Shown here one piece after another: positions 21,949-63,854 of a DNA stretch of 64,000 nucleotides. Source of the DNA: an uncultured virus (IMG/VR IMGVR_UViG_3300032087_004682) (taxonomy: Duplodnaviria; Heunggongvirae; Uroviricota; Caudoviricetes). The notes below the pieces were generated by a model. That model ran no database searches, was not told the origin of the DNA, and saw only the letters and a list, made by a program, of their open reading frames with translations. The translations under genes were made by a program, and so were the position numbers. How positions within the stretch are numbered: the stretch's first letter is position 1; each line of letters begins with the position of its first letter. The stretch lies in IMG/VR virus record IMGVR_UViG_3300032087_004682. One strand, written 5' to 3'.

Positions 21949-22584
21949 ATGAAGTTAAAAACACAAAAAATACGAGGCAATGACTATGTCGTTGTTAATG
22001 AAAGAGTGAGGGCTTTTAGAGCCCATGAGTCATTCAAGGATATGTCGATTGAGACAGAAATATTAAACATATCTGATGATCGTGTCGTTATGATCGCCAG
22101 AGTTAAGGATGCCAATGGAAACATAAAAGCCACTGGTCATGCCGAAGAAGTTCAAACCAAGAGCGGTGTTAACTCCACTTCTTTTATTGAGAACTGCGAA
22201 ACTTCTGCTGTCGGAAGATGCCTTGGGTTTCTCGGTATTGGAGTAGATGATTCCATTGCCACCTTTGAGGAAGTAGAAAGAGCAATTGAGAGACAGGAGG
22301 AAAAACCATCCCCTACCCCAACTGCCCTAAACCACAGAGCGATGGCTCCTGCTGCTCCTGAGGTTGAAGAATCAGACCCTCTTGACTGGAAGGAAGTTGT
22401 ATGCCCATTAAAAAAACATAAGGGCACCAAGACTGGTGTAATCGCTGAATCCGATCCCGACTACTTGGAGTATTTCTCCACCAAGTTAGATACTATGCAA
22501 GACCAGAAGTTTGCATGGGCAATCGGGCAATTTATGAAGACTCGTAACCAAGATGGTAATCAAGGTTTTGAGTTAGTTGCATAA
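21949..22584 (+). CDS. Single-strand annealing protein (Sak/Rad52-like)
   Basis: YVVVNERV...ATGHAEE...IENCETSAVGRCLGFLGIG. Confidence 0.7.
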   Translation: MKLKTQKIRGNDYVVVNERVRAFRAHESFKDMSIETEILNISDDRVVMIARVKDANGNIKATGHAEEVQTKSGVNSTSFIENCETSAVGRCLGFLGIGVDDSIATFEEVERAIERQEEKPSPTPTALNHRAMAPAAPEVEESDPLDWKEVVCPLKKHKGTKTGVIAESDPDYLEYFSTKLDTMQDQKFAWAIGQFMKTRNQDGNQGFELVA

Positions 22585-23315
22585 TGGAAGATCAAGATAG
22601 AGGAGACGCTCCGTCAGCTTCCAAGATCTCTGCGATTGTAAAATGCAGAGGGTATCATAAAGCGAATCAGATTTTCCCATGGTATGGTGATAAGGATGCT
22701 GCCGATGAAGGCACTATCCGTCACCAACATGAGGAAGACCAAACTCCACTTGAGGAGATCATGGATGAGGAGCAAAAGATATGTGCCCTTAAATGCAGAC
22801 AAGCATTAGATTGGTGCAGAGAAGACCTTTTGTTGACTGAGAATCAGACGACAATAGAGCGCGAAGTGCGGTTGTGGTGGGATGGGATGTGGTCAGGGCA
22901 GTTAGACTACCTTGAAACATGGTCAAAGCTAGGAAAGATGGACGAGGGTCTTCAAGAGTATGCTTTTGTGGCAGACTATAAGACCCTTAGGGGAGAACAT
23001 GATCCAGCGCCTGTGAATGTTCAGTTGTTGGCTCAAGCTGCCCTGGTTCGCAAAAATTATCCAAAAGTAACAGAGGTTTATGTGGCTTTGATTGAGCCAT
23101 TCAAGAACCCATCCTACTCTACTGCTTCTTATTCTGGAGCCCACCTAATGGAAAAGGGTGCTTGGATTACAGAGGTAGTACAGGAGGCAATGGATGATGA
23201 TGCTCCTAGAACGGCGGGACCATCGCAATGTAAATGGTGTGCAGCAGTTCCATTTTGCCCAGAGGCAAGGAACTTAATGAAATTAATGGAGGGAAAATAT
23301 GAAGTGGTTGGATGA
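22584..23315 (+). CDS. Cas4-like PD-(D/E)XK exonuclease (DUF2800-like, N-part)
   Basis: GT..H, GQLD, ADYKT, QL and C-terminal CKWC....C. Confidence 0.8.
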   Translation: MEDQDRGDAPSASKISAIVKCRGYHKANQIFPWYGDKDAADEGTIRHQHEEDQTPLEEIMDEEQKICALKCRQALDWCREDLLLTENQTTIEREVRLWWDGMWSGQLDYLETWSKLGKMDEGLQEYAFVADYKTLRGEHDPAPVNVQLLAQAALVRKNYPKVTEVYVALIEPFKNPSYSTASYSGAHLMEKGAWITEVVQEAMDDDAPRTAGPSQCKWCAAVPFCPEARNLMKLMEGKYEVVG

Positions 23316-23685
23316 CCCAAAAGATTTATCTGAAGCAATGGAGTTGGTTCCATTTGCTGATGCGTTTGTTAAAGCAGTAAAGGCAGCCGTTAAGGCTAAA
23401 CTTGAAGAAGACCCCGAATCAGTACCGGGATTTAAATTACGGGGAGGAGGTAACACAACAAGCTACAACGCACAGGAAGTAGCGAATATAATCATGGATT
23501 CCAATGTTCTTGGATGGGATGACCTTCTTCAGGCAATGAAATTCTCAATGACCCCCTTTATTGGGATCTGGTCTGAGCATACAGGGATGAGTAAGGCTGA
23601 AGCCAAAAAAGACCTTATGGAGCGCCTACAGAAGATCCAAAGGACAAAACCCAAAGCACCATCAATCGTCAAAAATGCAAAGTGA
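23299..23685 (+). CDS. DUF2800-like C-terminal part as a separate ORF
   Basis: VPGFKL motif and terminal KPKAPSIVK. Confidence 0.55.
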   Translation: MKWLDDPKDLSEAMELVPFADAFVKAVKAAVKAKLEEDPESVPGFKLRGGGNTTSYNAQEVANIIMDSNVLGWDDLLQAMKFSMTPFIGIWSEHTGMSKAEAKKDLMERLQKIQRTKPKAPSIVKNAK

Positions 23686-24013
23686 TGGAAAAGGGAGAAA
23701 AGATAACGCTCCGAGTGAAGAAGAAAACCCCTTCACTCAATCAATTACTGCGGTGGAATCAGTGGGAACGCAGGAAGGAAAAACAGGAGATGAACAAGGA
23801 GGTTTATTTCGCCATCGAGTGCGCATTCATTCAAGACGAGTCAGAATCTGTGACCCAGACAACCTCGTTGGGGGCGTCAAGCATCTCGTTGATTCGCTCA
23901 GGTATGCTCAAATTATTCCAGAAGATGACCCCCAAGCAATCACGCTCCAAGTCTCCCAAGAAAAGGTCAAAAGCTTCAAGCAGGAAGAGACTTGGGTGGA
24001 GGTAAGTGTATGA
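23675..24013 (+). CDS. rusA: RusA-like resolvase, catalytic (C-terminal) half
   Basis: DPDNL...KHLVDSL...IIPEDD acidic motif; stop overlaps the next ATG (ATGA). Confidence 0.75.
   Translation: MQSDGKGRKDNAPSEEENPFTQSITAVESVGTQEGKTGDEQGGLFRHRVRIHSRRVRICDPDNLVGGVKHLVDSLRYAQIIPEDDPQAITLQVSQEKVKSFKQEETWVEVSV
23685..24005 (+). CDS. RusA-like N-terminal half in an overlapping frame
   Basis: ITLRVKKKTPSLNQLLRW motif; ATG coupled to the upstream stop (TGATG). Confidence 0.65.
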   Translation: MEKGEKITLRVKKKTPSLNQLLRWNQWERRKEKQEMNKEVYFAIECAFIQDESESVTQTTSLGASSISLIRSGMLKLFQKMTPKQSRSKSPKKRSKASSRKRLGWR

Positions 24014-24519
24014 GCGATAGAATATCATTTAGACTACCTCCTGAGGCTCAAAAGAACCTTGAAAATTTCATGGCTGCAACAGGTAAAAAAGCGAGTGAAA
24101 TTGCTCGAGCAGGACTTGAAATTTACATGGCTCAATGTGGATGGAGATTGGCGCCATTTGTCGGACACGTGTCAGACAATCCTCACGTACGTGCGCAAAG
24201 TAATGACTCAGATTTATCTGAAGATAAATCGTCCTGTCGGACAAATGAGAAAGATGAAGTTCAAGATTGGTTTAAGAAATTTTGGATTGTTTGCGAAAAC
24301 AAGCAAATGCCCAAAAGGGTAGTCAAAACAATCAAAGATAACTGGAGTGAATTATCTGAATTGGATCCTAGTCAAGTATCGGAGGCTTACAACTCGTACT
24401 GCCAAAATGAAGCATCAAGAGGAAGGGAATACTGCCAGCCTAACTCATGGCTTGCGGGTGGAGGTTACGAGAGCGAAGAAGAGAAAGAAGTTGGAGGGAT
24501 AGCATATGACATTGAATGA
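24010..24519 (+). CDS. Replication initiator-like protein (RHH-like N-terminus)
   Basis: ISFRLP N-terminal strand; FKKFW...PNSWL C-terminal domain typical of phage initiators; directly upstream of DnaB; contains iteron-like repeats. Confidence 0.65.
   Translation: MSDRISFRLPPEAQKNLENFMAATGKKASEIARAGLEIYMAQCGWRLAPFVGHVSDNPHVRAQSNDSDLSEDKSSCRTNEKDEVQDWFKKFWIVCENKQMPKRVVKTIKDNWSELSELDPSQVSEAYNSYCQNEASRGREYCQPNSWLAGGGYESEEEKEVGGIAYDIE
24156..24245. repeat. Iteron-like repeats / putative replication origin
   Basis: TGTCRGACA at 24159, 24170 and 24235; palindrome CACGTACGTG at 24184; GATTTATCT-GA-AGATAAATC at 24211-24230. Confidence 0.6.
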
Positions 24520-25906
24520 TTACTCAGATTACGATGCAGAGAGGGGCTTTGCATCCTGCACTAGAGATGAGGATGAAATGTGTTTTGAGATCTGGGCGTA
24601 TGCAATGGAAAAAGGCATCACAGATGAGCATTTCAGAAATTTAGCAATTCGGGAATATTTCGTAGCTTTCAAACTTGCTGAAAGGGAAGACGACTACGGT
24701 ATGTTTGGGGCGATGAATCGCCTACCGAAAGACTGGAAAGAGCAAAACCCAAATTTTATCAAAGCAGTTCTATTTTGTTGTGACACCCCTGCCCGTGGGA
24801 AAGAGTGGGTAGATCGTTTGGTTAAAGCTCACAAATTCAGAAAACTACAAGAGTTGTCTCTGAAAATACAGGATGATGTTAACCAAGCAGGGAAACTTGA
24901 TGACCCGACCAAGATTGCAGTAAAACTTGAGGAGGAGCTTACAACCCTTATTGAGCCAGACAGCAAAACATTGGTTTCAGCAAAGGAATTAGCAGAGGCT
25001 ACAAACTTTGCGATCAAGCAAGAGCGTGACCTTGGTGGGGCAAGTATCCAAACACAAATTCCGTTTCTAAATTCAATTCTTGATGGTGGTTTTAGGGCTG
25101 GTCAAATGGTAGTAGTGGCAGCCCGACCATCCATCGGGAAAACAACCTTCTCAATGAATGTGGCTCACCATTCGGCATGCAAGGGCAAGAAGGTTTTGTT
25201 TTTCTCACTTGAGATGTCTAAGGATCAGCTAGGCAAGAAATTGGCAGCCATTGACCAAGGGGTAAACTTATCCAAGTTTGCAGAGCGAAGAGAGAATGAC
25301 GAAGATCGTAAACTACTCCAACGAGGACTTGAGAATATATCTGAGCTTCCGATCTGGGTAGATGATAATCCTGGTCAAACAATCTCAATGATTAGGGCAC
25401 AGGCTAAAACAATGAACAGGAGGCATGACCTAGATGCTATTTATATTGATTATCTGGGATTACTTGAGCCAGAGGATAAAAGAGATGTTAGAGAGCAACA
25501 AGTAGCTCAAATATCAAAAGCGTGTAAGCGATTGGCTAAGGAGTTAAACTTGGTAGTTTTCCTTATCTGTCAGTTAAATCGTGATTCAGCTAAAAGTGGA
25601 AGCGTTCCCCAACTTCATCACCTTCGTGAAAGTGGTCAGATCGAGCAAGATGCTGATATTGTTTTAATGCTCCATCGTGAGATGAAGGCTGGTGGAGATA
25701 CCGAGACAACTGATATTATTATTAATAAGAATCGCTTTGGTCCAATTGGTCACACTAAAGATCGTGTAACATTTGACAGGTTCACGCAGAGGTTTAGACA
25801 AAAGGCAGAACCGCCTAGGCTTCACGACCCTGAGCCTAAAAAGGCAAAGCCAGCATCTCAGTCTGATTTTAAATACGAACCCTTGGTTACGGATAGATTA
25901 GGATGA
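24506..25906 (+). CDS. dnaB: Replicative DNA helicase
   Basis: AARPSIGKT, FSLEM, IDYLGL, CQLNR and LRESGQIEQDAD motifs. Confidence 0.95.
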   Translation: MTLNDYSDYDAERGFASCTRDEDEMCFEIWAYAMEKGITDEHFRNLAIREYFVAFKLAEREDDYGMFGAMNRLPKDWKEQNPNFIKAVLFCCDTPARGKEWVDRLVKAHKFRKLQELSLKIQDDVNQAGKLDDPTKIAVKLEEELTTLIEPDSKTLVSAKELAEATNFAIKQERDLGGASIQTQIPFLNSILDGGFRAGQMVVVAARPSIGKTTFSMNVAHHSACKGKKVLFFSLEMSKDQLGKKLAAIDQGVNLSKFAERRENDEDRKLLQRGLENISELPIWVDDNPGQTISMIRAQAKTMNRRHDLDAIYIDYLGLLEPEDKRDVREQQVAQISKACKRLAKELNLVVFLICQLNRDSAKSGSVPQLHHLRESGQIEQDADIVLMLHREMKAGGDTETTDIIINKNRFGPIGHTKDRVTFDRFTQRFRQKAEPPRLHDPEPKKAKPASQSDFKYEPLVTDRLG

Positions 25907-52497: not shown

Positions 52498-55400
52498 TTA
52501 ATATAAGTCTAGCGCCATTAACCTTGGGTCCTTTCTGACGGAAGGCATCCTTTTTGGTTCTATGCCATACTTATAGTACAGCATAGCTTCTGTTTGTCGC
52601 TTAGTGGGGGTTGATACTTCAATCATACTGGAGTATTGGTCGTGTGCCTGTAGGTATCTCATTACCTTAGCAGCCTCATCTTCGTCCATTAATCCAATTA
52701 GCTCCTGAAGCGTTTGTTCAGTCATGGCACCATCAGTAATGTTTTTGGTAACCATTCTTCTCTTAAATGCGTTTCGTATCTCTCGCTCTGGGTTAGCTTT
52801 CCCTTCTTCTCTCAGAACATCAAGTGCGTCTTGGTATGCATCCTGAAATGCTTTCGTGTCATAATTGTACGCAGCCCGCTCCATCTGTCTAAGATTGATC
52901 GAGAAAGGTGTTGGTCTGTACCCTCCTTTGGATGGAGCCTTTAGTGGCAGGCCCATACCCCATGCGTATTTCTTGATTATGTTTCTTACTCCAATGTAAT
53001 CAGCTACTCGCCTCTCTGCTATGTCTATGTCAAACATTGCAGTTGTGGCATCTATGAATTGGATCGCAGAATTACCCCCGACACCATACAGGATCGGTCT
53101 CATTACATTGTGGTAATCCATTTCACCCTGATGCATCCAGTTGCCCATAGCATCATAAACATTTTTAATCATAGACCATGCGAATATTCTGCTATCTAGT
53201 GAAAATTCTTTAGCCGCTCCGTATGGATCTGCCTTACTAAATACACTATTGGCTACATCCATACCCATACCATAGGGCACACCAGCCTTAGCTAGCCTAG
53301 ATGTTATTGCATATATGGAAAAGTTTGGATCCGCTTCAGCTGCCATGAAGGGACCGACCACCGGAAGTAATGCCCATGGAGTGATTGGTGGTAAGTTGTT
53401 TGGTTTCTCTAGTACCTCATCGTCATACCAGTCTACAAGCATAGCAAAGGCTAAACCAGCAGGAGTGTATACGGCAGATACTAAGCCAAGATACTTCAGA
53501 AAAGCCATCCATGTGGCACGATCCGTTCTGGCATCTTTACCAAAAACATAGTTTGAGTTGCCTTGTAGCACACGATTGTCCCGTGCCATTTTCCAGAGAG
53601 GCCAACCAAGGAATATACCAGCGTACTTCCATAGGTCATTTGTATAAAGTGCTGCGGGTTTTGCATTAAATCCCTCACCAGATACTTCATTCATCGCCAT
53701 CTGGTTAATCAGCTTACCAATGCTTGCCTCTATGACTGGCGTATTGGGGTCATTCTTTTTTCTTTGCACAAAGTCAAAGGCAAGCCTGGAGAGATTGGGA
53801 GCGCCTACGCTTTCAAGAAGGTTATTCATTTGATTGAATCCATCCTTCTGTCCTACAAAAAATTCAAATACCCCTGCACCCAGACCAAGTTCTTCGGCAG
53901 TAAAATTATGAAAGTTCTGCAGCCCCTGATTCTCTATAACTTTTGCAATCTTCAATACCTCAGATTCAACAGAGAAGATCGCACCCACCCCAACAGCATG
54001 GTTGATGTTTGCATTGATGTACGGAAACATACCTACCAGCGGAGTCTTCCAATCAACGGGCGATCTGAGTCCTTTCTTCTTGGACTTCCTGTTGTGCATA
54101 GCCATCTTCTTCATGAAGCGTATGCCCTTCTTTGCGGTGGCTGAGTCCATGCCAAAGCCAGTAAGCTCACCACCAGAACCAACTTGAGATATATACTCTT
54201 TCCATGTCAGATCAGACTCAGAGTTTTGAAAGTGTGTATTGGCTAGGTACTCGGCATAGATATGGGATCTGCCTATATTGATTCCCATTGCCTCAAGGAT
54301 ACCACCGAATGTTTGGTCAATGAATGTAGTAAACGCCTTGGTTGTTGCTTTGAGCGACATACCATTTAATCCATGGTACGCCATCGGGAACTCAGTCATG
54401 GATAGACCCTGCCAGAATGATGACTTAGGATTGTTTAGTACAGCTAGTGATTGCAACCCAAGTAACTCAAGTGGCACATTAGCATCCTTGAATGGGCCAG
54501 CTACATTTCCGCTTCCATAGTATTTATTAAGGTGGTCAAAAATGATTTCCATTTCACCAATGGCAGCCGAGTTTGCAAATAAGTCTTCAAAGGTTGCCTC
54601 GGGAGTTCTGCCTTTTGTGATCTCTGGGCGATTACGAAGCAAGTCATACACTCTTTTACGCACAGCCTTACTGTAGTCACTAAGGACACCATCTGCTTTG
54701 GCTCCTGTTGCTTCTGCAATTAGGCCAAGAAATACAGCTTTATCATTACTCCATCTTTCATCAGCTTTAGCCCTAACAGCATTAGCATTTGATCCACCAC
54801 GACCAAATACTGAGGATGCAATCATCATCTGCAATCTTACCGCACTGGTTATCTCGTCATAGCTATCGTAGTAGAAGTACTCCTTAGGTAGTGTGGCTGC
54901 ATGGTTTCTGGCATCTAATGACCTTGGGCTATTCATTAGCATGTTCTGCGTTTTGTGTGCATCATGCTGGGTTTGAATATCCATGAAAGCAGAGTGGAAT
55001 CTATCGTACTTTCTTTGGAACTGTTTAATCATACTGAAGTACCAGTCAGCACGATCCTGATCCGTTGATTCATCAGTGGCGAAATCCTGGAATACAGTAT
55101 CCAGGAATGACACAAAAGCATCCGTGCCAGATTGATTGCGAGTTGTGTTACGCCATACAGCATTTACATATGCATTGCCCATCTCCTCGCCATTCGGTCC
55201 GTAGAACACAGACCTTCTGTTGTCGCTCTTTAGGTAGTTTCCTGCCCAACGTGTTACAACCTCCTCAGAGAACAATTCCTTGACTGCATTGGTTACAACC
55301 TCCAGGTCGTACCTACCATCCAACTGCATGAGTCTTTTATATATACCATCCTCATTAGATTTGGATGGTACCCACTTACCTGAGAACTCTTTATTTTCTG

Positions 55401-58400
55401 GTGTCGGTGCTTTCAGTATTGAAATAGCATTGGCAATCGCCCCTTCGTTGAGTACGCGAGGGATCGTAGCGTAGCCTAAATCTACCGGGCGTCTATAGAA
55501 GTCTACGGTCTCTCCGTCAATGAGGGATTGAACCTTAAAGTCATCCTTGATTCTGTTGCCAAGAACATTGAGGTTGTAATTAGCCTCAAAGTCTCTGGCA
55601 TCTATGGTTCTGCGGATTAATGTAACTAAGGCTTTCTTAGTTTCTGCATTGAGTTTGGACTTGTCAGGGACATTCCCATTCTCCTTGAGATGTTTCCATA
55701 GTCCATTGACTGCCTCTGTCTCATTGCCATCATGCTCGGGGTGATTATCAAAGTACCACCATACATCTTGGTAAAATGTAGTGAACATCTCTTTACCATT
55801 CATGCCCATCTTCTCGAGCAAATTGATGTAAGCTACATTCCACTTCTTAGCATAGTATTGTACATCGGAATTTACATCCCTGAACAGCGCAGCGGTCCGT
55901 GCCAGCATACCACCAAGTTTCTTACCTTCATAACCCATGCGGTTTAACCTGGCATTGAGTGACTCTATTCCTGCCATCCATGCTTGCTTTCGTACAGTGA
56001 AGTATTGATCTCCTACTGGTTCATACAATGCACGATTGGCTTGTTCCTTCATGGCATCATACCATGGCTCTTGTTGGAATGAGTTCTTGGCTTTGTCGTC
56101 CTTCAGGAACTCTAATGTGGATGCGTTTAAGCGTACAAACTTATCTCGGTCTACCATCTTTCCGTTCTGGTATCTGATGGTAAATCTTCCTAACTTCCAT
56201 TGGTTACGTACTGGGCCAGAGGTTACATACTTTCCGTTCTCTCCCTTTCTTCTCTCCATGACAAGCATGGTTGCTCCCTGTCTTATGTCCACAGGCTCAA
56301 GCTCACCAAGTGCTGTACGAAGTCTTGCTTCTCTGGCTAACAACAGCCCATCAATAGCTTCGTGAAGTTTCTCATATTGTAGATCACGACCACGCTCATT
56401 CTTAACCTTGATGGATTGTATCTTTGTTTCGGATAACTTCTTTAGTAGACTACCTACCCTGCCCTTTGATCCTGACTCTTTGTATGCGTTCTCTGCTTGT
56501 TCTTTTGTTTCTGCTGATGCTATAGCTTCAACATCCTCAAAGAATGTATTCTTTTCGCCCAGGTCTTTTAGTGTGGCAATCCTGTACAATGTATAAAGAT
56601 CACGGCTATATACTGTACGATCCGCAAACACGTGCATAGCGTACTCACTGCCCTCTTTCTTGAGCCAATCAAACCTCTTGTCCGTGGATGTTTTGATACG
56701 CTCTACAATTTCTTTCTTCCCGAGTGTTTCCACAATATCGCTCATCTCAATGATTGCTTCCATTGTGTCCTTCACTTTGTTCTTGAGGTCAGGCATCTCA
56801 CGCAATGCTTTAACATCTGCAACCTCCACATTCATGCCCTCCAGCTTCATTGACTCCAGAAGCTTTTCAATCCTTGGGACATTCATGGAGTTCACCATCT
56901 TCTCTGCCATTGCTTCCGCTAGCTCTACGGGGGGTGTCAGCTTACGGGATCTGGCTGCTGCCAGCAGTCTCTCAAACTCTGCCACAACTGCTTTAGCGTG
57001 TACAAGCTGATCGGAAATATCTGCCTTCTTTATCCTGGCATTATTTCTTGCACGACTGAGGAATCCAACAGCATCAATCATGGCACGATCCCTTCCTCTA
57101 CGGTTCATGCCTTGGTCATCAATGCTTATCTTGGATAACTCATTGACCTCTTTACCCAGACGCTTGGAGTAGTCCCGAAGATTCTTCTCTATATTCATAC
57201 CCGATTGCTCGTTTATAAACTTCTTCAGTCCGTCCTTACCTTTATATGTATCTGGTAAATTATTGTTCTGTGCTAGGTTGGTAAATACCTTAGTTAACTG
57301 ACGCACTACCTCATTGTTTGCAGCGACTGATGCGGTGTGACCAACCATGGCAGCTTCATCAGGTTTAGGCGATGGCTTGGGTGGCATCTTAACCTGAGAG
57401 TACCTAGCTTCAGTTAAGTAATTAACATACCTTGAAATACTGGCCTTAAAGTCTGGTGTTACTTCAAGGTTCAAAAGGAACTCATCCTCATCCATTATGG
57501 CAACAAGCACCTCGGCGGGTGTATCAAATCCAAAAAAGTCCTCCCTGCCTAATGCTCTAAGAAAGTTCTTCATACCCGGATCCATGTCGGTACTCTCAAG
57601 CATTTCATATACTTCACTAGATGGGGTATCCTCATCAAAGACCTCAAGGTAATCATCATATAGTCTGTGCCTGTATGACTTAAGTATATCTAGTGACACC
57701 TCTGTATTACTTGGACCGTAGTCTCTCATCTTATGAGGGACATACTTATCCTTGTTATCAAATCGGTCAGGTAGATCTATCTGTGAGTATCTACGATTCT
57801 TCGCCCAGTACCTACGGTGGGCTTTCTCCATCTCTGTTCTGAGTCTGGCTACATTGAGTCCGAGTCGATTACCATAGTCATACGCAATCTGTCCGTCCAT
57901 CTCCTCACTACCTGTGACAATCAGCACATCTGCTACCTTCTGGTATACCTTGGGGTCGGACTTCTTGATCCTAAACATTTGCCAGAATGTAGGAAGATCA
58001 CTCGGTGCTTCCTCCACCTTCTGGTCAAAGTCAAATAACATCTGCTGGGCACGGATGGTTGCGTCAAATGGTAAGTTGCCCATGTACTTACCTAGCGGAT
58101 AAGCAGTCTTGGTTATTACCTTCAGGTAGTTGTCTGCTTGGTCAAGTAGGTTGGGTTGTACGCCCACCATCCTGGCAATCAATCTCCTGATCCATTGCCA
58201 TACAGTTTTAAATACACCTTGCTTCAGTCCCAGACTCTTTGACATCTCGGGTGTCATCCGAGTCTTTTTAAGTAAGTGCCTTAATTCATAGTTACTGGAC
58301 AGCTCTGCAAAAAATTCTTCTACGGATGACAATGAGTATTCACGGACATTTACACCAAAGTCGTTATTGGATTCACGAAGTGCGGGAATAATTACATCTC

Positions 58401-61400
58401 GTACATTCCTGTACACCTGAGCCATGAGTTCGCCATCCTTTGTGTACTTGGAAAGCTCTTTGATTAACTCCTTATCCTTAGCGTCAAATGCGTACCCTAC
58501 CTCCATTCCTAACCTTACAGGGACATGGGTTATTTCGTGTACTATTAGGTTAGCTAATGTTTCGTCTGCATTAACAGTTTGCTTCGTGTCATTGTAAAAT
58601 GTGTCGGATATTGCGATTTCATTTTTACCGGGCATATACACAGCAGCAGTCATGTTACCCTCACTTACCCTTGCATACCTACGAAACTCTTCCCATGGCA
58701 TGAACCTAACTCTTACATTCTCCAGGGATGGGTGTCCTCGCATTAAGGATGCCCACATAGTTAAAGCGCTACCGTTCTTATATTTGTCTGTTACTTTGGA
58801 TATAATGTTACCCAATGTATAATTAGCATCAAATGTACCTAATGGGTCACCACTACCTATGAAGTCTTTAATAGCTTGCTTGGCTATCTGCCTAAGCTCT
58901 GGGTATTTCTCCAGAGGATGTTCCTCTCTCGCCATTACATCCACCTCAGTTGCCATACTGCGTTGATGGTCAGCCTCAATTAGTTCTGGTGTAACTGGTG
59001 CCTCTCGGATCTCAATTGGTTTACCCGTGGCAAGATCGGTAAGCTCATCCACCATTGGAATCATTGAGTGTCTGGCATCCTGCTCAGTTGGGCGCGCCAT
59101 CCATGTGGTCTGCAACTTCTCTGGAACTATAGCCTTACCAAAGAATCCTTGAAGGAGATTGGCGTAGTTTGGTATCTCCTTCTCTAGTTTCTTAAATGCC
59201 TTATCAATCTGCTTGTTACGAGCTTCTACATTAGCAGTTTTATTGATTGGGGTTTGGTCTTTAAATATCTGTACTGGGTCCGTGTTATCTAGGAACTCTT
59301 TGTCCTTTGCGTCCTTGCCCTTGCTCCGCATCTTGCCAGCTGTGTCACGACCTACGGTAGCGGTATTCATTACATCCTGAAGAAGCTTGCCAGCCTCCTG
59401 GGAATCCATGCCCTCATTGACCAAGAGACGTTTAATGAAAGCTGCTAGTCTAAATGGATCCCTACGTGCATTATCTACAGTCTTGTCGTTAACTTCTGCT
59501 GGTATAGCACCGCTGAATATTGCATGATCCTGTGCGATCTCAGCGATCTTGGCATACCTTGTCTGCCTATTAACTCTAGTTAAGTCAGCTACACTTAAAG
59601 ACTTATCGGTGATTATGTCACCCAGTGCATCATGTAGTTCACTAATTGGGTTTGCAGCGTCTGAAAAGAAATCTTCTAAGGCTTCATTAAGCCTTATTAC
59701 AGAAGTGTTCTTGGTCAACTGATCTGTCCCGAGGAGTTTCATGCTCAAGTCGGTCAGTCTTTTCTTTTCTGCCCGAGACATGTTCTTGACGCTTGCTAGA
59801 TCTATTGGCTGCTCACCATCCTTGATGATATTACCACCCATCTGGGTACCCTTAGATCTATCCAGTAAGATATTAAACTCAGCTATATCATTAACAAGAT
59901 TAAGTAATTGATTAAACTTGGCGTATCCTTGACCAGCAACCCCTGACATCTTTTTATACAATGTATACGGACTGGTTTTATCAAAGGTCTCCCTCTTAAT
60001 ACCCTCTTCAATTTTGTTACCTTGCTTAACCTTAGTTAAATACCTTGCCTTCTTCTGCTTCGCTAGGATTTCATTATACAGGCGAGTAAGTTCCTCATGT
60101 TTTACAAACTGATTATCCTCATCAATAAAACCATGCACTTCGGTGCCTTTAGACTTTTCTGTATCCTCTTTTATCTTGGTATTTATTGCCTCAAACACAG
60201 CCTCGATTGGCGCATCTACAATAAATAATTCTTTGGCTTTCTCCATAGCCTTGGAGCCCGCCTTATACTTACCCTGCTCCTCTGACTTAAATACATTAGT
60301 ATATGTTTCAAATATACCTAGATTATTCTTTTGATCGTACTTTCTTGCCGGTACGAGCATCTGCTTGTAGGAGTCACCACGCTCCCGCATAGCAAGAAGT
60401 TCAGATGCGTCTTTGCTTATGACATCAGGCTTCTCAATCTGGGTATCTCTCGTTAACCCCTTCTTCTCAAACTCTCTTTGAATCTGTCTTAACTTCCTTA
60501 ATTCAGGCTCATAGTTAACACTCTCCTCCATGCCAGAATCAAAGGTGGTGCGATCCACTGGAGCAGGGAGTCCATCCACTAATGTCTCACCTACATATCC
60601 ACCATATGCTAATTCTTTTCTTAATGATTCTGCGTCATCAAAGTATATGTCATTTGGTTTCTTATTGACCTTATCTTGCATGACAAAACCAACGATTGAA
60701 TGAGTCCCGCCCTTGTCTTGGTTGACCCATTCTGACATCGGCTTGAACTTATCAGAATTAGCATCATATGCGGTAATATTACTTCCGTTCTTTTTTACAG
60801 ATACTACACGAAAGCTGCCAGCTTGCTCGCTTGATTGGTCGTCATTCCTAAAGATCGCAAGTGCCTTGCCCCCACCTTTATCTCCAAACTCAATTTCTCC
60901 AACCCCAATCCCAGACCTAAAGAAATCCCCATCTACATTCTGGTCTAGCTTCTCATCAAAATATACTCGGTCCAATACAACACTATCGGGAATGTTGTTA
61001 TAATCCGTGTAGTCGTCTCGGGTAAATTTTGGTGTAAGATCTATCTCCAGATCACCAATCCTTATGCCATCAAGAGCTTGTGGGGATCCATATTTCTCTA
61101 GCTTCAGATCCTGCACGACATCCCCAGACTCTAAGTGTACATATCCATCCTTCTTGAGTATGGCATTCTTGAGCCTAGTATCTGATCTGATCTCTGCCTC
61201 AAGGTCTTCTTTACTTTCAAACTTTACCTTCTTGAAGCCCTTGCGAGAATTACCTAAGCGAAAAGCTAAGGTGGTTTGTGCCATATCCACATCGGGAAAT
61301 ACATCAGCTAAATCCGTAACCTCATCAACTGGGGCACTCTTACGCTTGGGTGATTTCTCAGTAGGTTTACGCTTCTGCTTGGGTTGTGGTTTGGTAAAGA

Positions 61401-63447
61401 GCTTTGGATCTTCCTCTATGTTTTCGTTTAACTGCTCGGTAAGTTCTGCATCCGCATACTCATCCACAACAATCTTGCCATCACGCTCTGGGTCTTTGGG
61501 GTCGTCAATGATCTCCCGTAATACAAAGTAACTACCGCTACCCTTTCTTCTTAAAATACCTGGTACTTGTTTCTCTTCGTCACGTACCTCAAACAACCTG
61601 TCACTCATGTACTTCTTGCGTGACATGGCAGTCTTCTGGTTCTTGCGGAATGTGACCTCTTCCGCTTCTTTTAAGTCTTTGCTGGTTGGGCGTTGCCAGT
61701 TGAAGTTATCACCAAGTATGCCTGCTTCTTTGAGTATTCTTAGTGCTGCCTTGTTATTTGAGAGTGCTATCTCTTTAAGCTCTGGGTCAAGTGTACCTAA
61801 GAAGTTAGCCATACTTCCATATGTCTGGTTCTGCTTAAAGCCTTCAGAGTTTTGTGCGGATGACAGGAGTGTGTTGTATATGCGTTTGGCGTTCTCAACA
61901 TCTATGTCACTCTTGTTTGTTACATTTTGAGTCTGTAGCTCAGATGTGTAATCATCCTCCAGGGGTTTGAATGTCGCTGTGCCAAGTTCCGCTTCTGGAA
62001 CTTTTGCTTCCTTCTCATCTGGTGACTCAACCTCATCCTCAATTATGTCAGGTGCTTTCTCGGTCTTAACTATTACAGGAGCTGCGACAACCGGGGCTAA
62101 TTCATTGAGTGGTACTTTGACATCATTCGTTACCTCAACCCCATCCTGGTCAATGTCACTTGTACGCACCACCGCTTCATTATTTTTGATGCTTTGTATT
62201 ACACCCGTAACACCAAATGGTTGTGCCACCTCTTGACCTACTTCAAATTCAGCGACCTGTGTTTGTTCTTCTGCGCCCAGTATCTGATCCACATCAGGCT
62301 GTTGCCCGACATCCAGTGTTGGATCCTCAGCCTCGTCATTAATTTTAGTTATGTCTTTCTTGGGTCCACGCACGGCACTAATAGCAGAGAACTGACTACC
62401 GCCCACTGCACCCATAATACCAGCATTGATCATTTCCTCTATCTCTGCATCCGAGAAATCAAACTCTTGGCGTACATATTTTTCTGAGGATTTGATGACA
62501 AACTCTTGGAGTGCCTCTGTTGTGCCCTCAAGCAATACACCTTCAGGAAGATTGGCTAACAACCTTTGAAGGTAATCAGAGGACTTTTTGTCACCAATAT
62601 TGATTAGCTTATTCAGCATCTTTCCTGCTGATGCAAAGTCCAAGCCCGCTACAATACCACCACCTACAAATGAAACATTACGAGCGGTATCTGGATCTAT
62701 GTAATCTTCGTGGCTCGGGTCTAGTTGTGTGTATGGATACAATGTAGAGTAAACCTCTCCTGTGCCCATAACTCCAGAGCTTGTACCAACTCCAGCCAAT
62801 GCTCCTGTTTGAAATGCTTTCTTGGTTGCCAGCTTCTCTATCTGGTCATCCGTGGCATCTTTGATTAAAGATTTGAGCTTCTTCTTTATGACACCCTTGG
62901 CTGCTAAACCAGCCACACCACCAGCACCAAATGTAGCCAATGACTCCACGGTGGACGGCAATGCCCCACCAATCAAGTTAGCTGCGTATCTGGCAATTTC
63001 ACCTGGGCGATCCCACCTGACATCTGCATAGCTGTCTATCGTTGGTTGCGCACCAGATGCAGCATCGGCAGATAACTCAGATGCTTTCCTCATGGCTGCG
63101 TCACGAACAGAATCAAATCCAACTGTGTCGGCGAGCAAACCAACACCACTATATCCCATCTGACCTAAGCCGATTGCCTGCCTCCTAAAGCTGGCTAGTG
63201 CGTCATCAACTACACCTCTACCCTCTTCTGGTTTATTCTTTTCGTCTAGGTATTTATTTAAAAAGTCACTACCGTGGGCTCTTGCAATATCATCATTCGT
63301 GCCACCAGACTGTATATAGGAATCACCTAATCTTTTGATTAACTCGTGATTACTTACAAGGTCTAGGTCTTCACCCAACTCCTCCAGTCTTGCCCGATAC
63401 TGCTCAGCAACTGGATCATCTATGTCATCTGGAAATAAACTTGGCAT
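52498..63447 (-). CDS. Giant (~3650 aa) virion-associated polyvalent-type protein with zincin motif
   Basis: TAATG-coupled start at 63447; Gly/Ala-rich N-terminus with EG.TE..QE; HEITH...EEFFAE motif; hydrophobic C-terminal helices. Confidence 0.7.
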   Translation of the reverse strand: MPSLFPDDIDDPVAEQYRARLEELGEDLDLVSNHELIKRLGDSYIQSGGTNDDIARAHGSDFLNKYLDEKNKPEEGRGVVDDALASFRRQAIGLGQMGYSGVGLLADTVGFDSVRDAAMRKASELSADAASGAQPTIDSYADVRWDRPGEIARYAANLIGGALPSTVESLATFGAGGVAGLAAKGVIKKKLKSLIKDATDDQIEKLATKKAFQTGALAGVGTSSGVMGTGEVYSTLYPYTQLDPSHEDYIDPDTARNVSFVGGGIVAGLDFASAGKMLNKLINIGDKKSSDYLQRLLANLPEGVLLEGTTEALQEFVIKSSEKYVRQEFDFSDAEIEEMINAGIMGAVGGSQFSAISAVRGPKKDITKINDEAEDPTLDVGQQPDVDQILGAEEQTQVAEFEVGQEVAQPFGVTGVIQSIKNNEAVVRTSDIDQDGVEVTNDVKVPLNELAPVVAAPVIVKTEKAPDIIEDEVESPDEKEAKVPEAELGTATFKPLEDDYTSELQTQNVTNKSDIDVENAKRIYNTLLSSAQNSEGFKQNQTYGSMANFLGTLDPELKEIALSNNKAALRILKEAGILGDNFNWQRPTSKDLKEAEEVTFRKNQKTAMSRKKYMSDRLFEVRDEEKQVPGILRRKGSGSYFVLREIIDDPKDPERDGKIVVDEYADAELTEQLNENIEEDPKLFTKPQPKQKRKPTEKSPKRKSAPVDEVTDLADVFPDVDMAQTTLAFRLGNSRKGFKKVKFESKEDLEAEIRSDTRLKNAILKKDGYVHLESGDVVQDLKLEKYGSPQALDGIRIGDLEIDLTPKFTRDDYTDYNNIPDSVVLDRVYFDEKLDQNVDGDFFRSGIGVGEIEFGDKGGGKALAIFRNDDQSSEQAGSFRVVSVKKNGSNITAYDANSDKFKPMSEWVNQDKGGTHSIVGFVMQDKVNKKPNDIYFDDAESLRKELAYGGYVGETLVDGLPAPVDRTTFDSGMEESVNYEPELRKLRQIQREFEKKGLTRDTQIEKPDVISKDASELLAMRERGDSYKQMLVPARKYDQKNNLGIFETYTNVFKSEEQGKYKAGSKAMEKAKELFIVDAPIEAVFEAINTKIKEDTEKSKGTEVHGFIDEDNQFVKHEELTRLYNEILAKQKKARYLTKVKQGNKIEEGIKRETFDKTSPYTLYKKMSGVAGQGYAKFNQLLNLVNDIAEFNILLDRSKGTQMGGNIIKDGEQPIDLASVKNMSRAEKKRLTDLSMKLLGTDQLTKNTSVIRLNEALEDFFSDAANPISELHDALGDIITDKSLSVADLTRVNRQTRYAKIAEIAQDHAIFSGAIPAEVNDKTVDNARRDPFRLAAFIKRLLVNEGMDSQEAGKLLQDVMNTATVGRDTAGKMRSKGKDAKDKEFLDNTDPVQIFKDQTPINKTANVEARNKQIDKAFKKLEKEIPNYANLLQGFFGKAIVPEKLQTTWMARPTEQDARHSMIPMVDELTDLATGKPIEIREAPVTPELIEADHQRSMATEVDVMAREEHPLEKYPELRQIAKQAIKDFIGSGDPLGTFDANYTLGNIISKVTDKYKNGSALTMWASLMRGHPSLENVRVRFMPWEEFRRYARVSEGNMTAAVYMPGKNEIAISDTFYNDTKQTVNADETLANLIVHEITHVPVRLGMEVGYAFDAKDKELIKELSKYTKDGELMAQVYRNVRDVIIPALRESNNDFGVNVREYSLSSVEEFFAELSSNYELRHLLKKTRMTPEMSKSLGLKQGVFKTVWQWIRRLIARMVGVQPNLLDQADNYLKVITKTAYPLGKYMGNLPFDATIRAQQMLFDFDQKVEEAPSDLPTFWQMFRIKKSDPKVYQKVADVLIVTGSEEMDGQIAYDYGNRLGLNVARLRTEMEKAHRRYWAKNRRYSQIDLPDRFDNKDKYVPHKMRDYGPSNTEVSLDILKSYRHRLYDDYLEVFDEDTPSSEVYEMLESTDMDPGMKNFLRALGREDFFGFDTPAEVLVAIMDEDEFLLNLEVTPDFKASISRYVNYLTEARYSQVKMPPKPSPKPDEAAMVGHTASVAANNEVVRQLTKVFTNLAQNNNLPDTYKGKDGLKKFINEQSGMNIEKNLRDYSKRLGKEVNELSKISIDDQGMNRRGRDRAMIDAVGFLSRARNNARIKKADISDQLVHAKAVVAEFERLLAAARSRKLTPPVELAEAMAEKMVNSMNVPRIEKLLESMKLEGMNVEVADVKALREMPDLKNKVKDTMEAIIEMSDIVETLGKKEIVERIKTSTDKRFDWLKKEGSEYAMHVFADRTVYSRDLYTLYRIATLKDLGEKNTFFEDVEAIASAETKEQAENAYKESGSKGRVGSLLKKLSETKIQSIKVKNERGRDLQYEKLHEAIDGLLLAREARLRTALGELEPVDIRQGATMLVMERRKGENGKYVTSGPVRNQWKLGRFTIRYQNGKMVDRDKFVRLNASTLEFLKDDKAKNSFQQEPWYDAMKEQANRALYEPVGDQYFTVRKQAWMAGIESLNARLNRMGYEGKKLGGMLARTAALFRDVNSDVQYYAKKWNVAYINLLEKMGMNGKEMFTTFYQDVWWYFDNHPEHDGNETEAVNGLWKHLKENGNVPDKSKLNAETKKALVTLIRRTIDARDFEANYNLNVLGNRIKDDFKVQSLIDGETVDFYRRPVDLGYATIPRVLNEGAIANAISILKAPTPENKEFSGKWVPSKSNEDGIYKRLMQLDGRYDLEVVTNAVKELFSEEVVTRWAGNYLKSDNRRSVFYGPNGEEMGNAYVNAVWRNTTRNQSGTDAFVSFLDTVFQDFATDESTDQDRADWYFSMIKQFQRKYDRFHSAFMDIQTQHDAHKTQNMLMNSPRSLDARNHAATLPKEYFYYDSYDEITSAVRLQMMIASSVFGRGGSNANAVRAKADERWSNDKAVFLGLIAEATGAKADGVLSDYSKAVRKRVYDLLRNRPEITKGRTPEATFEDLFANSAAIGEMEIIFDHLNKYYGSGNVAGPFKDANVPLELLGLQSLAVLNNPKSSFWQGLSMTEFPMAYHGLNGMSLKATTKAFTTFIDQTFGGILEAMGINIGRSHIYAEYLANTHFQNSESDLTWKEYISQVGSGGELTGFGMDSATAKKGIRFMKKMAMHNRKSKKKGLRSPVDWKTPLVGMFPYINANINHAVGVGAIFSVESEVLKIAKVIENQGLQNFHNFTAEELGLGAGVFEFFVGQKDGFNQMNNLLESVGAPNLSRLAFDFVQRKKNDPNTPVIEASIGKLINQMAMNEVSGEGFNAKPAALYTNDLWKYAGIFLGWPLWKMARDNRVLQGNSNYVFGKDARTDRATWMAFLKYLGLVSAVYTPAGLAFAMLVDWYDDEVLEKPNNLPPITPWALLPVVGPFMAAEADPNFSIYAITSRLAKAGVPYGMGMDVANSVFSKADPYGAAKEFSLDSRIFAWSMIKNVYDAMGNWMHQGEMDYHNVMRPILYGVGGNSAIQFIDATTAMFDIDIAERRVADYIGVRNIIKKYAWGMGLPLKAPSKGGYRPTPFSINLRQMERAAYNYDTKAFQDAYQDALDVLREEGKANPEREIRNAFKRRMVTKNITDGAMTEQTLQELIGLMDEDEAAKVMRYLQAHDQYSSMIEVSTPTKRQTEAMLYYKYGIEPKRMPSVRKDPRLMALDLY

Positions 63448-63854
63448 TATCTTTTCCTTCCGAAGTGCCACCTTTCCTCAGGGGGTGAGGTTAAGGCATT
63501 GATTGCGCCTTTTGTTACATCCTTAAGAAAAGCTTCAGTTGCTTCACCGCCAACTATTGAGCCTGCGATCCCAGCTCCCACTTTCCCTATGCCTGTGACT
63601 AGAGGATTCGGTGTTGCTGGGAACGCTTTAAAACCCAGCATGAATCCACCTATGTTGCCTGGTGTTTGAGATATAGCTTCTGCAGCTACATCGGTTTTTG
63701 TGCGTATGTCTTCTTCAGGCACTATTTCTGCACGCTGATCCTTGGCGAAGAACTGATACAACTTGCCCAGTTCTTCTTGTGTTGGTTGCTCGCCAGCAAA
63801 CTCAACTTCTACCACTTCTTTTGTAAACGGATTCTCTACTTTTGATATAGGCAC
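63447..63854 (-). CDS. Hypothetical virion-associated protein
   Basis: Gly-rich hydrophobic segment; coupled to the giant gene. Confidence 0.5.
   Translation of the reverse strand: MPISKVENPFTKEVVEVEFAGEQPTQEELGKLYQFFAKDQRAEIVPEEDIRTKTDVAAEAISQTPGNIGGFMLGFKAFPATPNPLVTGIGKVGAGIAGSIVGGEATEAFLKDVTKGAINALTSPPEERWHFGRKR

Follow-up and report, generated by a model that had tools for sequence, protein, structure and literature searches.

The DNA analysed here is a 64,000-nucleotide (nt) stretch of an uncultured marine phage (IMG/VR IMGVR_UViG_3300032087_004682; hereafter the window, whose positions serve as coordinates throughout), in which two plus-strand open reading frames (ORFs) occupy nearly the same DNA and appear to carry, each in its own frame, one half of a RusA-type resolvase. 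ORF B lies in the -1 frame relative to ORF A and the shared span amounts to 321 nt, in agreement with an earlier reading of the bare sequence (the original prediction) that had described two frames open over the same ~320 nt; the couplings that it reported, by TGATG to the upstream gene and by ATGA to the downstream gene, were both found in the sequence. The third frame contains six stops across the span of the two ORFs. The locus comprises the following features:

23685..24005, plus strand: ORF A, 106 amino acids (aa) from ATG 23685, stop TAA 24003-24005
23682..24005, plus strand: ORF A from the alternative start GTG 23682, 107 aa
23675..24013, plus strand: ORF B, 112 aa from ATG 23675, stop TGA 24011-24013
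23683..23687, plus strand: TGATG, in which the TGA (23683-85) of the upstream gene (23299..23685) overlaps the ORF A ATG
23688..23809, plus strand: zone constrained in frame A only, with a strand (ITLRV), PSLN 23730-23741, Trp 23763-23765 and the first part of a helix
23810..23833, plus strand: dual-constraint zone of 8 codons, frame A AIECAFI (end of helix 1), frame B RHRVRIHS (first strand of the C-half)
23834..24010, plus strand: zone constrained in frame B only, with DPDN 23852-23863, Lys 23879-81, Asp 23891-93, EDD 23921-23929 and two C-terminal strands
24003..24013, plus strand: ORF ends, with the ORF A TAA (24003-05), then GTATGA, in which the ORF B TGA (24011-13) overlaps the ATG (24010) of the next gene as ATGA

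The ORF B ATG is located 10 nt upstream of the ORF A start, within the last codons of the upstream gene, and the ORF A stop lies 5 nt ahead of the ATG 24010 of the next gene. ORF A consists of a structured head followed by a S/T/K/R-rich tail that is the +1-frame shadow of ORF B; its segment in the dual-constraint zone reads A[LF]xSAL in relatives. ORF B consists of a head predicted to be disordered (residues 1-43) followed by the RusA C-half; the original prediction had described a low-complexity beginning and a subsequent catalytic half, and the disorder is seen in the AlphaFold2 (AF2) model of the head.

The dual-frame layout, which was to be sought among relatives, is conserved. A protein-pattern scan of IMG/VR returned 45 loci matching ORF B over its full length (61-100% identity) and 31 loci matching ORF A, the latter on the same contigs as ORF B matches; the alignment of 37 distinct sequences contains no gene-internal insertions or deletions (indels). 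Comparison of the 67-aa ORF B tail with 1.84 billion cluster representatives by phmmer gave 828 matches at E<=1e-3: The relatives, closer and remote, are all B-frame calls of 60-180 aa whose heads are of low complexity and which have no Pfam domain. Ten remote proteins used as query yielded 223 further viral relatives, 80 of which were kept; upon translation in three frames (n=40), every remote locus (40/40) exhibited an ORF A-type head in the +1 frame of ORF B, composed of a hydrophobic strand, (T/V/P)PS(L/Q)N, (H/N)W..R..EKK and A[LF]xSAL and followed by an open S/T/K/R-rich tail. Across the true loci (distinct, with enough flank, down to ~40% identity), the head together with a start codon 5 or more codons ahead of the motif was present in 93/93 and the ORF B frame was open from before the ORF A start in 93/93, with the ORF A stop positioned within -30..+40 nt of the ORF B stop in 88/93. 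The motif matched a 94th time in L041 (at 297), in an unrelated stretch that was left out. A head-based search for longer proteins gave 84 matches, and most of the 24 retrieved were A-frame calls (head plus tail). The 353 proteins fetched comprised 264 of B-type, 81 of A-type and a single one (P0350) with both halves in one frame. Deposited phages (50,697 genomes) gave no match by blastn of the region or by tblastn with the ORF B tail, and none of the 39 pattern matches from a pattern search of the genome collection (query alignment A2) was a relative. In one further protein, P0272 (249 aa), a C5 DNA methylase domain (PF00145) is continued in the same frame by an A-type head and tail; its contig has no stop of the upstream gene before the A frame.

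A sequencing or assembly indel in a single-frame gene, or a pseudogene derived from a recent frameshift mutation in an ordinary RusA gene, would place the N-half and the C-half in different frames by one event, and the database proteins P0165 and P0144 resemble such mosaics. Both change between the A and B frames at other sites, DPDN being absent from P0165, and appear to be indel variants or sequencing errors in short single contigs. The stretch is present in sequencing runs of 10 studies (one possibly the source), and contigs from four runs of four studies showed no inserted or deleted letters against the window; as to the read support that was to be checked, the frame switch is bridged with 0 gaps by contigs from two other studies (X4 record 11 and X8 record 19). 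A 229-nt contig of an RNA library (X20 record 9) also crosses the switch gap-free, but may be DNA and shows sequence presence only. Five of its seven substitutions fall inside the gene, four of them synonymous in frame A within the head and one (23836) synonymous in frame B; the others (23652, 23670) lie upstream of both starts. The X10 contigs end at 23797 and 23837 and do not bridge the junction. Given the gap-free contigs, the lack of internal indels in the 37 sequences and the layout in all 93 loci down to ~40% identity, together with purifying selection on both halves and the two alternate frames kept open (see below), the artefact or decay explanation is refuted at the level testable by this sequence analysis and retains next to no probability; the argument that the arrangement is not a simple sequencing indel stands.

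The frame under selection changes along the locus. Synonymous:nonsynonymous counts from pairwise codon comparisons of 36 distinct sequences are as follows:

23688-23809: frame A 5519:3365, frame B 868:7861, nucleotide diversity 0.158
23810-23833: frame A 255:439, frame B 727:300, nucleotide diversity 0.091
23834-24001: frame A 1967:8870, frame B 6507:3757, nucleotide diversity 0.127

Purifying selection acts on frame A at 23688-23809 and on frame B from ~23819. Based on the counts per codon, it passes from one frame to the other within ~15 nt, at 23805-23819; the switch zone originally proposed, 23775-23812, was roughly right and is placed somewhat further downstream by these counts. Switches between six-fold codon families confirm the frame selected in each zone, i.e. 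Arg CGA/AGA in the ORF A head and Ser TCG/AGC at 23831-33 in ORF B. Across 23810-23833 both frames are nearly invariant. When the ORF B codons of 25 clade representatives were resampled under background usage, the conservation of frame A over the 8 overlap codons exceeded that imposed by ORF B at each codon (z = 7.5, 7.5, 3.1, 4.7, 5.4, 9.2, 3.5, 5.8). The ORF B Ile/Val/Phe codon in the overlap is always xTT, which gives Leu in frame A in 25/25 clades; the ORF B Arg varies among CGC, CGG, CGA and AGA, and this codon switching implies that frame B is selected there too. About 8 codons (23810-23833), which encode the ORF A helix end and the ORF B first strand, are truly dual-coded, and each ORF's structured half is encoded opposite the other ORF's unconstrained half. 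One clade (L131, L133, L135, L136, L139, L142, L146, L151) has a 7-codon insertion at the dual-coded zone that resembles a duplication of it, with ALLSAIRS then TLSQLQDS in frame A and DCTAKCNPQ then YTLSITRFS in frame B; the ORF A helix end and the ORF B strand are consequently partly side by side in this clade, not superimposed.

Start codons and stop avoidance point to both frames as well. The ORF A start, found in all 93 loci, is conserved as ATG or GTG. In the window's clade an ATG/GTG of the ORF B frame occurs 10-16 nt upstream of the ORF A start in several upstream-gene contexts, in most of the clade 59-61 codons ahead of DxDN. Remote clades possess a 20-residue B-frame N-terminal motif (MNWTxEQLxxKGY..DG.Y) upstream of the ORF A ATG, for which synonymous/nonsynonymous counts of 278/648 in frame B against 98/861 and 55/898 in the other frames, which contain stops, indicate B-frame purifying selection. 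The loci with this motif (as MNWTxEQLxxKGYxLxxDG.Y) are L090, L099, L122, L127, L131, L133, L135, L139, L142, L146, L151 and L113, and the ORF B start of these clades is situated 52-70 nt upstream of the ORF A ATG; other clades have M(P)xWTxxEYxxYxxR at the ORF B N-terminus, and the window's clade has neither motif. The B-type clusters P0105, P0126 and P0245 begin directly at strand 2.

The openness of both frames exceeds the expectation from codon usage. Over the window's 23 other long ORFs, the -1 frame was open over 112 codons in 0/10,250 windows and the +1 frame over 106 codons in 110/10,388. Under the window's codon usage, the probability that ORF A stays open for 64 codons past the switch, given the ORF B amino acids, is P=0.00175, and that of ORF B being open over the ORF A head P=0.062. 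Of the 25 clade representatives, 22 have no ORF A stop in the first 63 codons past the switch (per-locus P 0.000-0.37, local codon usage), and in all 25 ORF B is open over the ORF A head (per-locus P 0.003-0.46). The ORF B Leu preceding Ile in L-I-P-(D/E)-D is encoded only by codons that avoid TAA and TGA in frame A.

The assignment to RusA holds by way of profile matches of the ORF B tail and of the predicted structure of P0350, not by way of Pfam: Neither window ORF matches any Pfam family, PF05866 included, at E<=1, and a single one of 29 remote B-type proteins reached PF05866 at E=0.031, below the cut-off. The ORF B tail of the window matches phrog_34 (RusA-like resolvase) with E=3.1e-4; among 26 clade representatives, the tails match phrog_34 in 25 (best 6.6e-11) and phrog_1682 in 21. 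Alignments of 26-44 sequences show little or no variation in the D, D, N, K, D, D columns. The catalytic acids of E. coli RusA are D70, D72 and D91; the acidic residues of ORF B are placed correspondingly, DPDN (23852-63) at the start of helix 2 and EDD (23921-29) in the following strand.

P0350, a metagenome protein of 138 aa, is alone among the 353 in uniting the two halves in a single frame. Identity to the heads of L126 and L141 is 57% in the N-half, and identity to the ORF B tails is 31-44% in the C-half; the protein contains GYLTPSLN, HW..R, D.DN, K...D and DD, and ~26 extra residues (end of helix 1 plus loop) between the halves. No viral locus was found for it, a word search returning only the protein itself. 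Its AF2 model (alignment A6; mean predicted local distance difference test score (pLDDT) 81.8, predicted template modelling score 0.74) exhibits strand 14-20, helix 27-32, helix 35-55, strand 70-78, helices 84-100 and strands 112-120 and 128-135, i.e. the fold order strand-helix-strand-helix-strand-strand. E. coli RusA accounts for each of the top 7 PDB matches of the model (E 2.3e-4 to 6.7e-3, probability 1.00, TMt 0.64-0.71), over 126-134 alignment columns. From these profile matches and this modelled fold, the ORF B tail and P0350 are both identified as RusA-like. Helix 1 of P0350 comprises 21 residues (W35-A55) and is followed by a ~13-residue loop before strand 2; as A[LF]xSAL of ORF A aligns to the hydrophobic end of this helix, ORF A must be read through the overlap for a full helix. 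In the AF2 model of the window's ORF B, residues 1-43 have a pLDDT below 50 and no secondary structure, and strand 47-55, helices 61-77 and strands 89-97 and 105-111 are predicted with pLDDT ~84-89; alone, ORF B would have neither strand 1 nor helix 1, only the last four elements of the fold.

Two overprinted genes that yield a two-chain enzyme had been offered as one of two possible explanations. This reading fits the lack of a conserved slippery site and of RNA structure, the dual constraint, the start codons and the openness, and across relatives the starts and the openness beyond chance are joined by selection in both frames, as is expected of an overprinted pair; unproven as it is, we favour it with a probability of roughly 0.6. 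According to this model, two separately translated chains, read from nearly fully overlapping frames of one mRNA, would reconstitute a RusA-like resolvase. ORF A would start at the ATG overlapping the upstream stop and contribute strand 1, the loop with PSLN and all of helix 1, its remainder forming a basic, probably disordered tail; ORF B would start 10 nt further upstream in the -1 frame and, past its disordered head, contribute strand 2, the catalytic helix with DPDN...K...D, the strand bearing EDD and the final strand. The chains would assemble as a RusA-like fold, presumably a dimer of heterodimers, and resolve branched phage DNA; translation of both ORFs, binding of the chains to each other and Holliday-junction cleavage are what we infer from the sequences. 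With a start on each side of the upstream stop, a ribosome terminating there could re-initiate in frame A or in frame B, and the position of the ORF A stop near the start of the next gene could deliver the ribosomes of both frames there for coupled re-initiation.

Several observations weigh against the two-chain model. The ORF A heads match no RusA PHROG model (0/26) and no Pfam family, and a profile of the heads, like one of the tails, finds no RusA match among PDB sequences; in consequence of the missing profile matches, the RusA identity of the head rests on P0350 and its model. The complex prediction that had been suggested as a check, for the ORF A head (49 aa) with the ORF B tail (67 aa), gave a score of 0.49 compared with 0.20 for the best of 3 controls, which is rated weak: The pass mark is reached by 116/157 solved complexes and 2/215 mismatched pairs, but passing scores of 0.60 or under comprise 18 of the 157 solved complexes and both passing mismatches. 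The runs agree in at least 97% of contacts with a partner pLDDT of at least 74; the prediction was made from custom alignments and the pass may reflect likeness to solved RusA. It lends the assembly of ORF A and ORF B weak support. The window's clade has no evident Shine-Dalgarno sequence at the ORF B ATG and lacks the conserved ORF B N-terminal motif of remote clades. ORF A ends earlier in 3/25 clades (L114, L076, L074), and the openness of its tail lacks an explanation under the model. The RNA-library contig is no evidence of translation, and a canonical slippery heptamer is present in three relatives (see below). Finally, no two-chain RusA is described in the literature as far as full-text searches showed, and there is consequently no precedent for the fold tolerating this split.

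The other explanation put forward at the outset, a programmed -1 frameshift, is unlikely in our assessment. A slip or other recoding event at ~23805-23812, after the Phe codon (T TTC) and into frame B, would produce a single-chain RusA of ~109 aa, possibly beside unshifted ORF A; the head of ORF A joined to the tail of ORF B indeed has the order and approximate size of a RusA monomer, and the selected frame changes from A to B within ~15 nt. T TTC is present in the window, the canonical G GGA AAC stands in frame A right before the ORF B Arg in L028, L035 and L036, an AAGGAGG stretch is located 7 nt upstream in many members, and the nucleotide sequence of 23810-23830 shows the high conservation that would be expected of a stimulatory signal. 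However, the canonical heptamer is restricted to these three loci and a slippery site is not conserved: The bases before the first conserved ORF B Arg vary by clade (TAT TTC, ATG ATC, GGA AAC, GGT TTA, CAG GTC, CAA GCC, CAG AAC, others), the switch sequence being ATG ATC GCC in the majority of the window's clade and CAG GTC, CAA GCC or CAG AAC in remote clades, and the window itself has no X XXY YYZ at its frame switch, as had been noticed before. Downstream of the switch, RNA structure was neither conserved nor unusually stable (RNAalifold empty for 23810-23850; window z-scores of minimum free energy +0.03 to +1.55; pseudoknots not searched). Moreover, frame A itself is selected through 8 codons after the putative slip, and because the P0350 helix extends through the segment overlapping the ORF B first strand, a -1 slip would truncate helix 1: The fusion would have ~15 helix residues (~11 in remote clades) compared with 21 in P0350, and no loop before strand 2. 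A frameshift also leaves unexplained that both ORFs have starts, that the ORF B head is open in 93/93 loci, that the ORF B N-terminus is selected and that the ORF A tail avoids stops. The RNA-library contig crosses the site without an inserted base, a weak argument as contigs drop rare variants. Three related mechanisms were rejected: transcriptional slippage as a general mechanism (A-runs near 23780 are unconserved and no contig compared contains an inserted base), ribosome hopping from one Ile codon to another (in frame B, the RHRVR segment that would be skipped is preserved through synonymous changes) and a double shift from the ORF B start, +1 into frame A and -1 back (ORF A has its own start in 93/93 loci, and the shadow openness would stay unexplained).

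A still less probable reading is that only one product matters, ORF B being a stand-alone truncated RusA-derived protein, which may have a different partner or function, and ORF A an independent overprinted gene or remnant, without assembly. Gene callers do favour ORF B (264 B-type versus 81 A-type calls), and the missing RusA hidden Markov model match of the ORF A head and the weak complex prediction would agree with it. Yet the ORF A head is under strong purifying selection, is homologous to the P0350 N-half and is in 93/93 loci always paired with ORF B, which alone would possess a disordered head and neither strand 1 nor helix 1; the strict co-occurrence of exactly two complementary halves makes the one-product reading hard to sustain.

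As to the origin of the split preferred here, i.e. two separately translated chains, a P0350-like ancestor is likely to have lost its helix-strand loop through a deletion that broke the frame. The ancestral gene would have lived on after this deletion as a nested pair of genes with separate initiation; the helix 1 end would then have been overprinted on the strand 2 codons, leaving 8 dually selected codons, and the unstructured halves would persist as stop-free shadows that keep the ribosomes of both frames running to the start of the next gene. For the complete scenario, a single-domain enzyme rebuilt from two chains of coextensive frames after an ancestral loop deletion with the helix 1 end overprinted on strand 2, the odds appear even. 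If the two-chain model is true, the locus represents an overlapping gene pair in which both genes derive from one gene and re-assemble its fold, a case not described in the overprinting or split-protein literature as far as full-text searches showed; no self-overlapping split enzyme would have been known before it, and it would be common among uncultured aquatic phages and escape standard annotation. It would also offer a testable system for how much sequence two frames can share (8 codons with real dual constraint), and suggest how phages keep interacting partners linked in mosaic genomes and how two starts around one stop codon could set subunit ratios. If the mechanism is instead a frameshift without slippery site, this would itself be an unusual recoding mechanism. 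The two-chain reading would also reveal an annotation blind spot: The 828 cluster representatives (E<=1e-3) are annotated as hypothetical half-proteins in either frame and lack Pfam matches, and a frameshift predictor would be inclined to fuse the halves of ORF A and ORF B.

The split RusA locus is part of a replication/recombination module with a PD-(D/E)XK exonuclease and a DnaB-like helicase, the downstream genes of which are:

24010..24519, plus strand: downstream gene, 169 aa from ATG 24010, coupled to the ORF B stop
24506..25906: DnaB-like helicase, its start overlapped by gene 24010..24519

Gene 24010..24519 shows a weak CopG-like match (phrog_7325, E=2.6e-4, residues 4-47) and a weak replication-initiation-like match (phrog_270, E=4.7e-3). 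Upstream, the plus-strand ORFs 22584..23315 (243 aa) and 23299..23685 (128 aa) are in different frames with a 17-nt overlap and match consecutive parts of the phrog_69 'exonuclease' profile (91-329, E=1.1e-10; 346-409, E=5.2e-4), the former also PD-(D/E)XK PF12705. The pair may be a second split gene of the module, or just a two-gene form. Elsewhere in the window, the minus-strand ORF 52498..63471 is a single frame of 3657 aa.

Known RusA proteins are single chains that form homodimers; here, in contrast, the halves are in different frames in 93/93 loci, which departs from a homodimer of one polypeptide. Compared with the E. coli and phage RusA (PF05866; phrog_34, phrog_1682; PDB 1q8r, 2h8c, 2h8e), the ORF B tail shares DxDN...K...D...(E/D)D in this order, whereas the N-half and the C-half are located in different frames of the same DNA and Pfam RusA matches neither ORF; P0350 has the same motifs in one frame instead of two. 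Split ORFs that are joined by -1 programmed frameshifting occur in dnaX and in the phage tail chaperone G/GT. The archaeal fucA1 is likewise reported to be split in two ORFs joined in this manner (PMC1616953). Like such systems in general, the present locus has its N-part in frame 0 and its C-part in frame -1; in them, however, there is a defined slippery site, as a rule together with a stimulatory element, the overlap is short and the alternate frame is closed elsewhere, whereas no conserved slippery site or stimulator is found here and both frames are open end to end. In the PRFect paper, 'RusA/RuvC' figures as one of the predicted joins scored as false positives, with reference to a 1991 ruvC paper, and the passages covered do not describe this dual-frame layout (PMC10885494). 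A full-text literature search, at the level of listed hits, gave no paper on a split or frameshifted RusA of this kind. Of the lambda spanin genes Rz/Rz1, one lies within the other in its +1 frame, and their products interact. The present locus resembles this pair in having two ORFs in different frames of the same DNA, which in lambda are both functional in one process and interact physically, the overlap keeping the partners genetically linked in mosaic phage genomes; unlike Rz and Rz1, which are two different proteins, ORF A and ORF B would be halves of one ancestral single-domain enzyme and are of nearly equal length.

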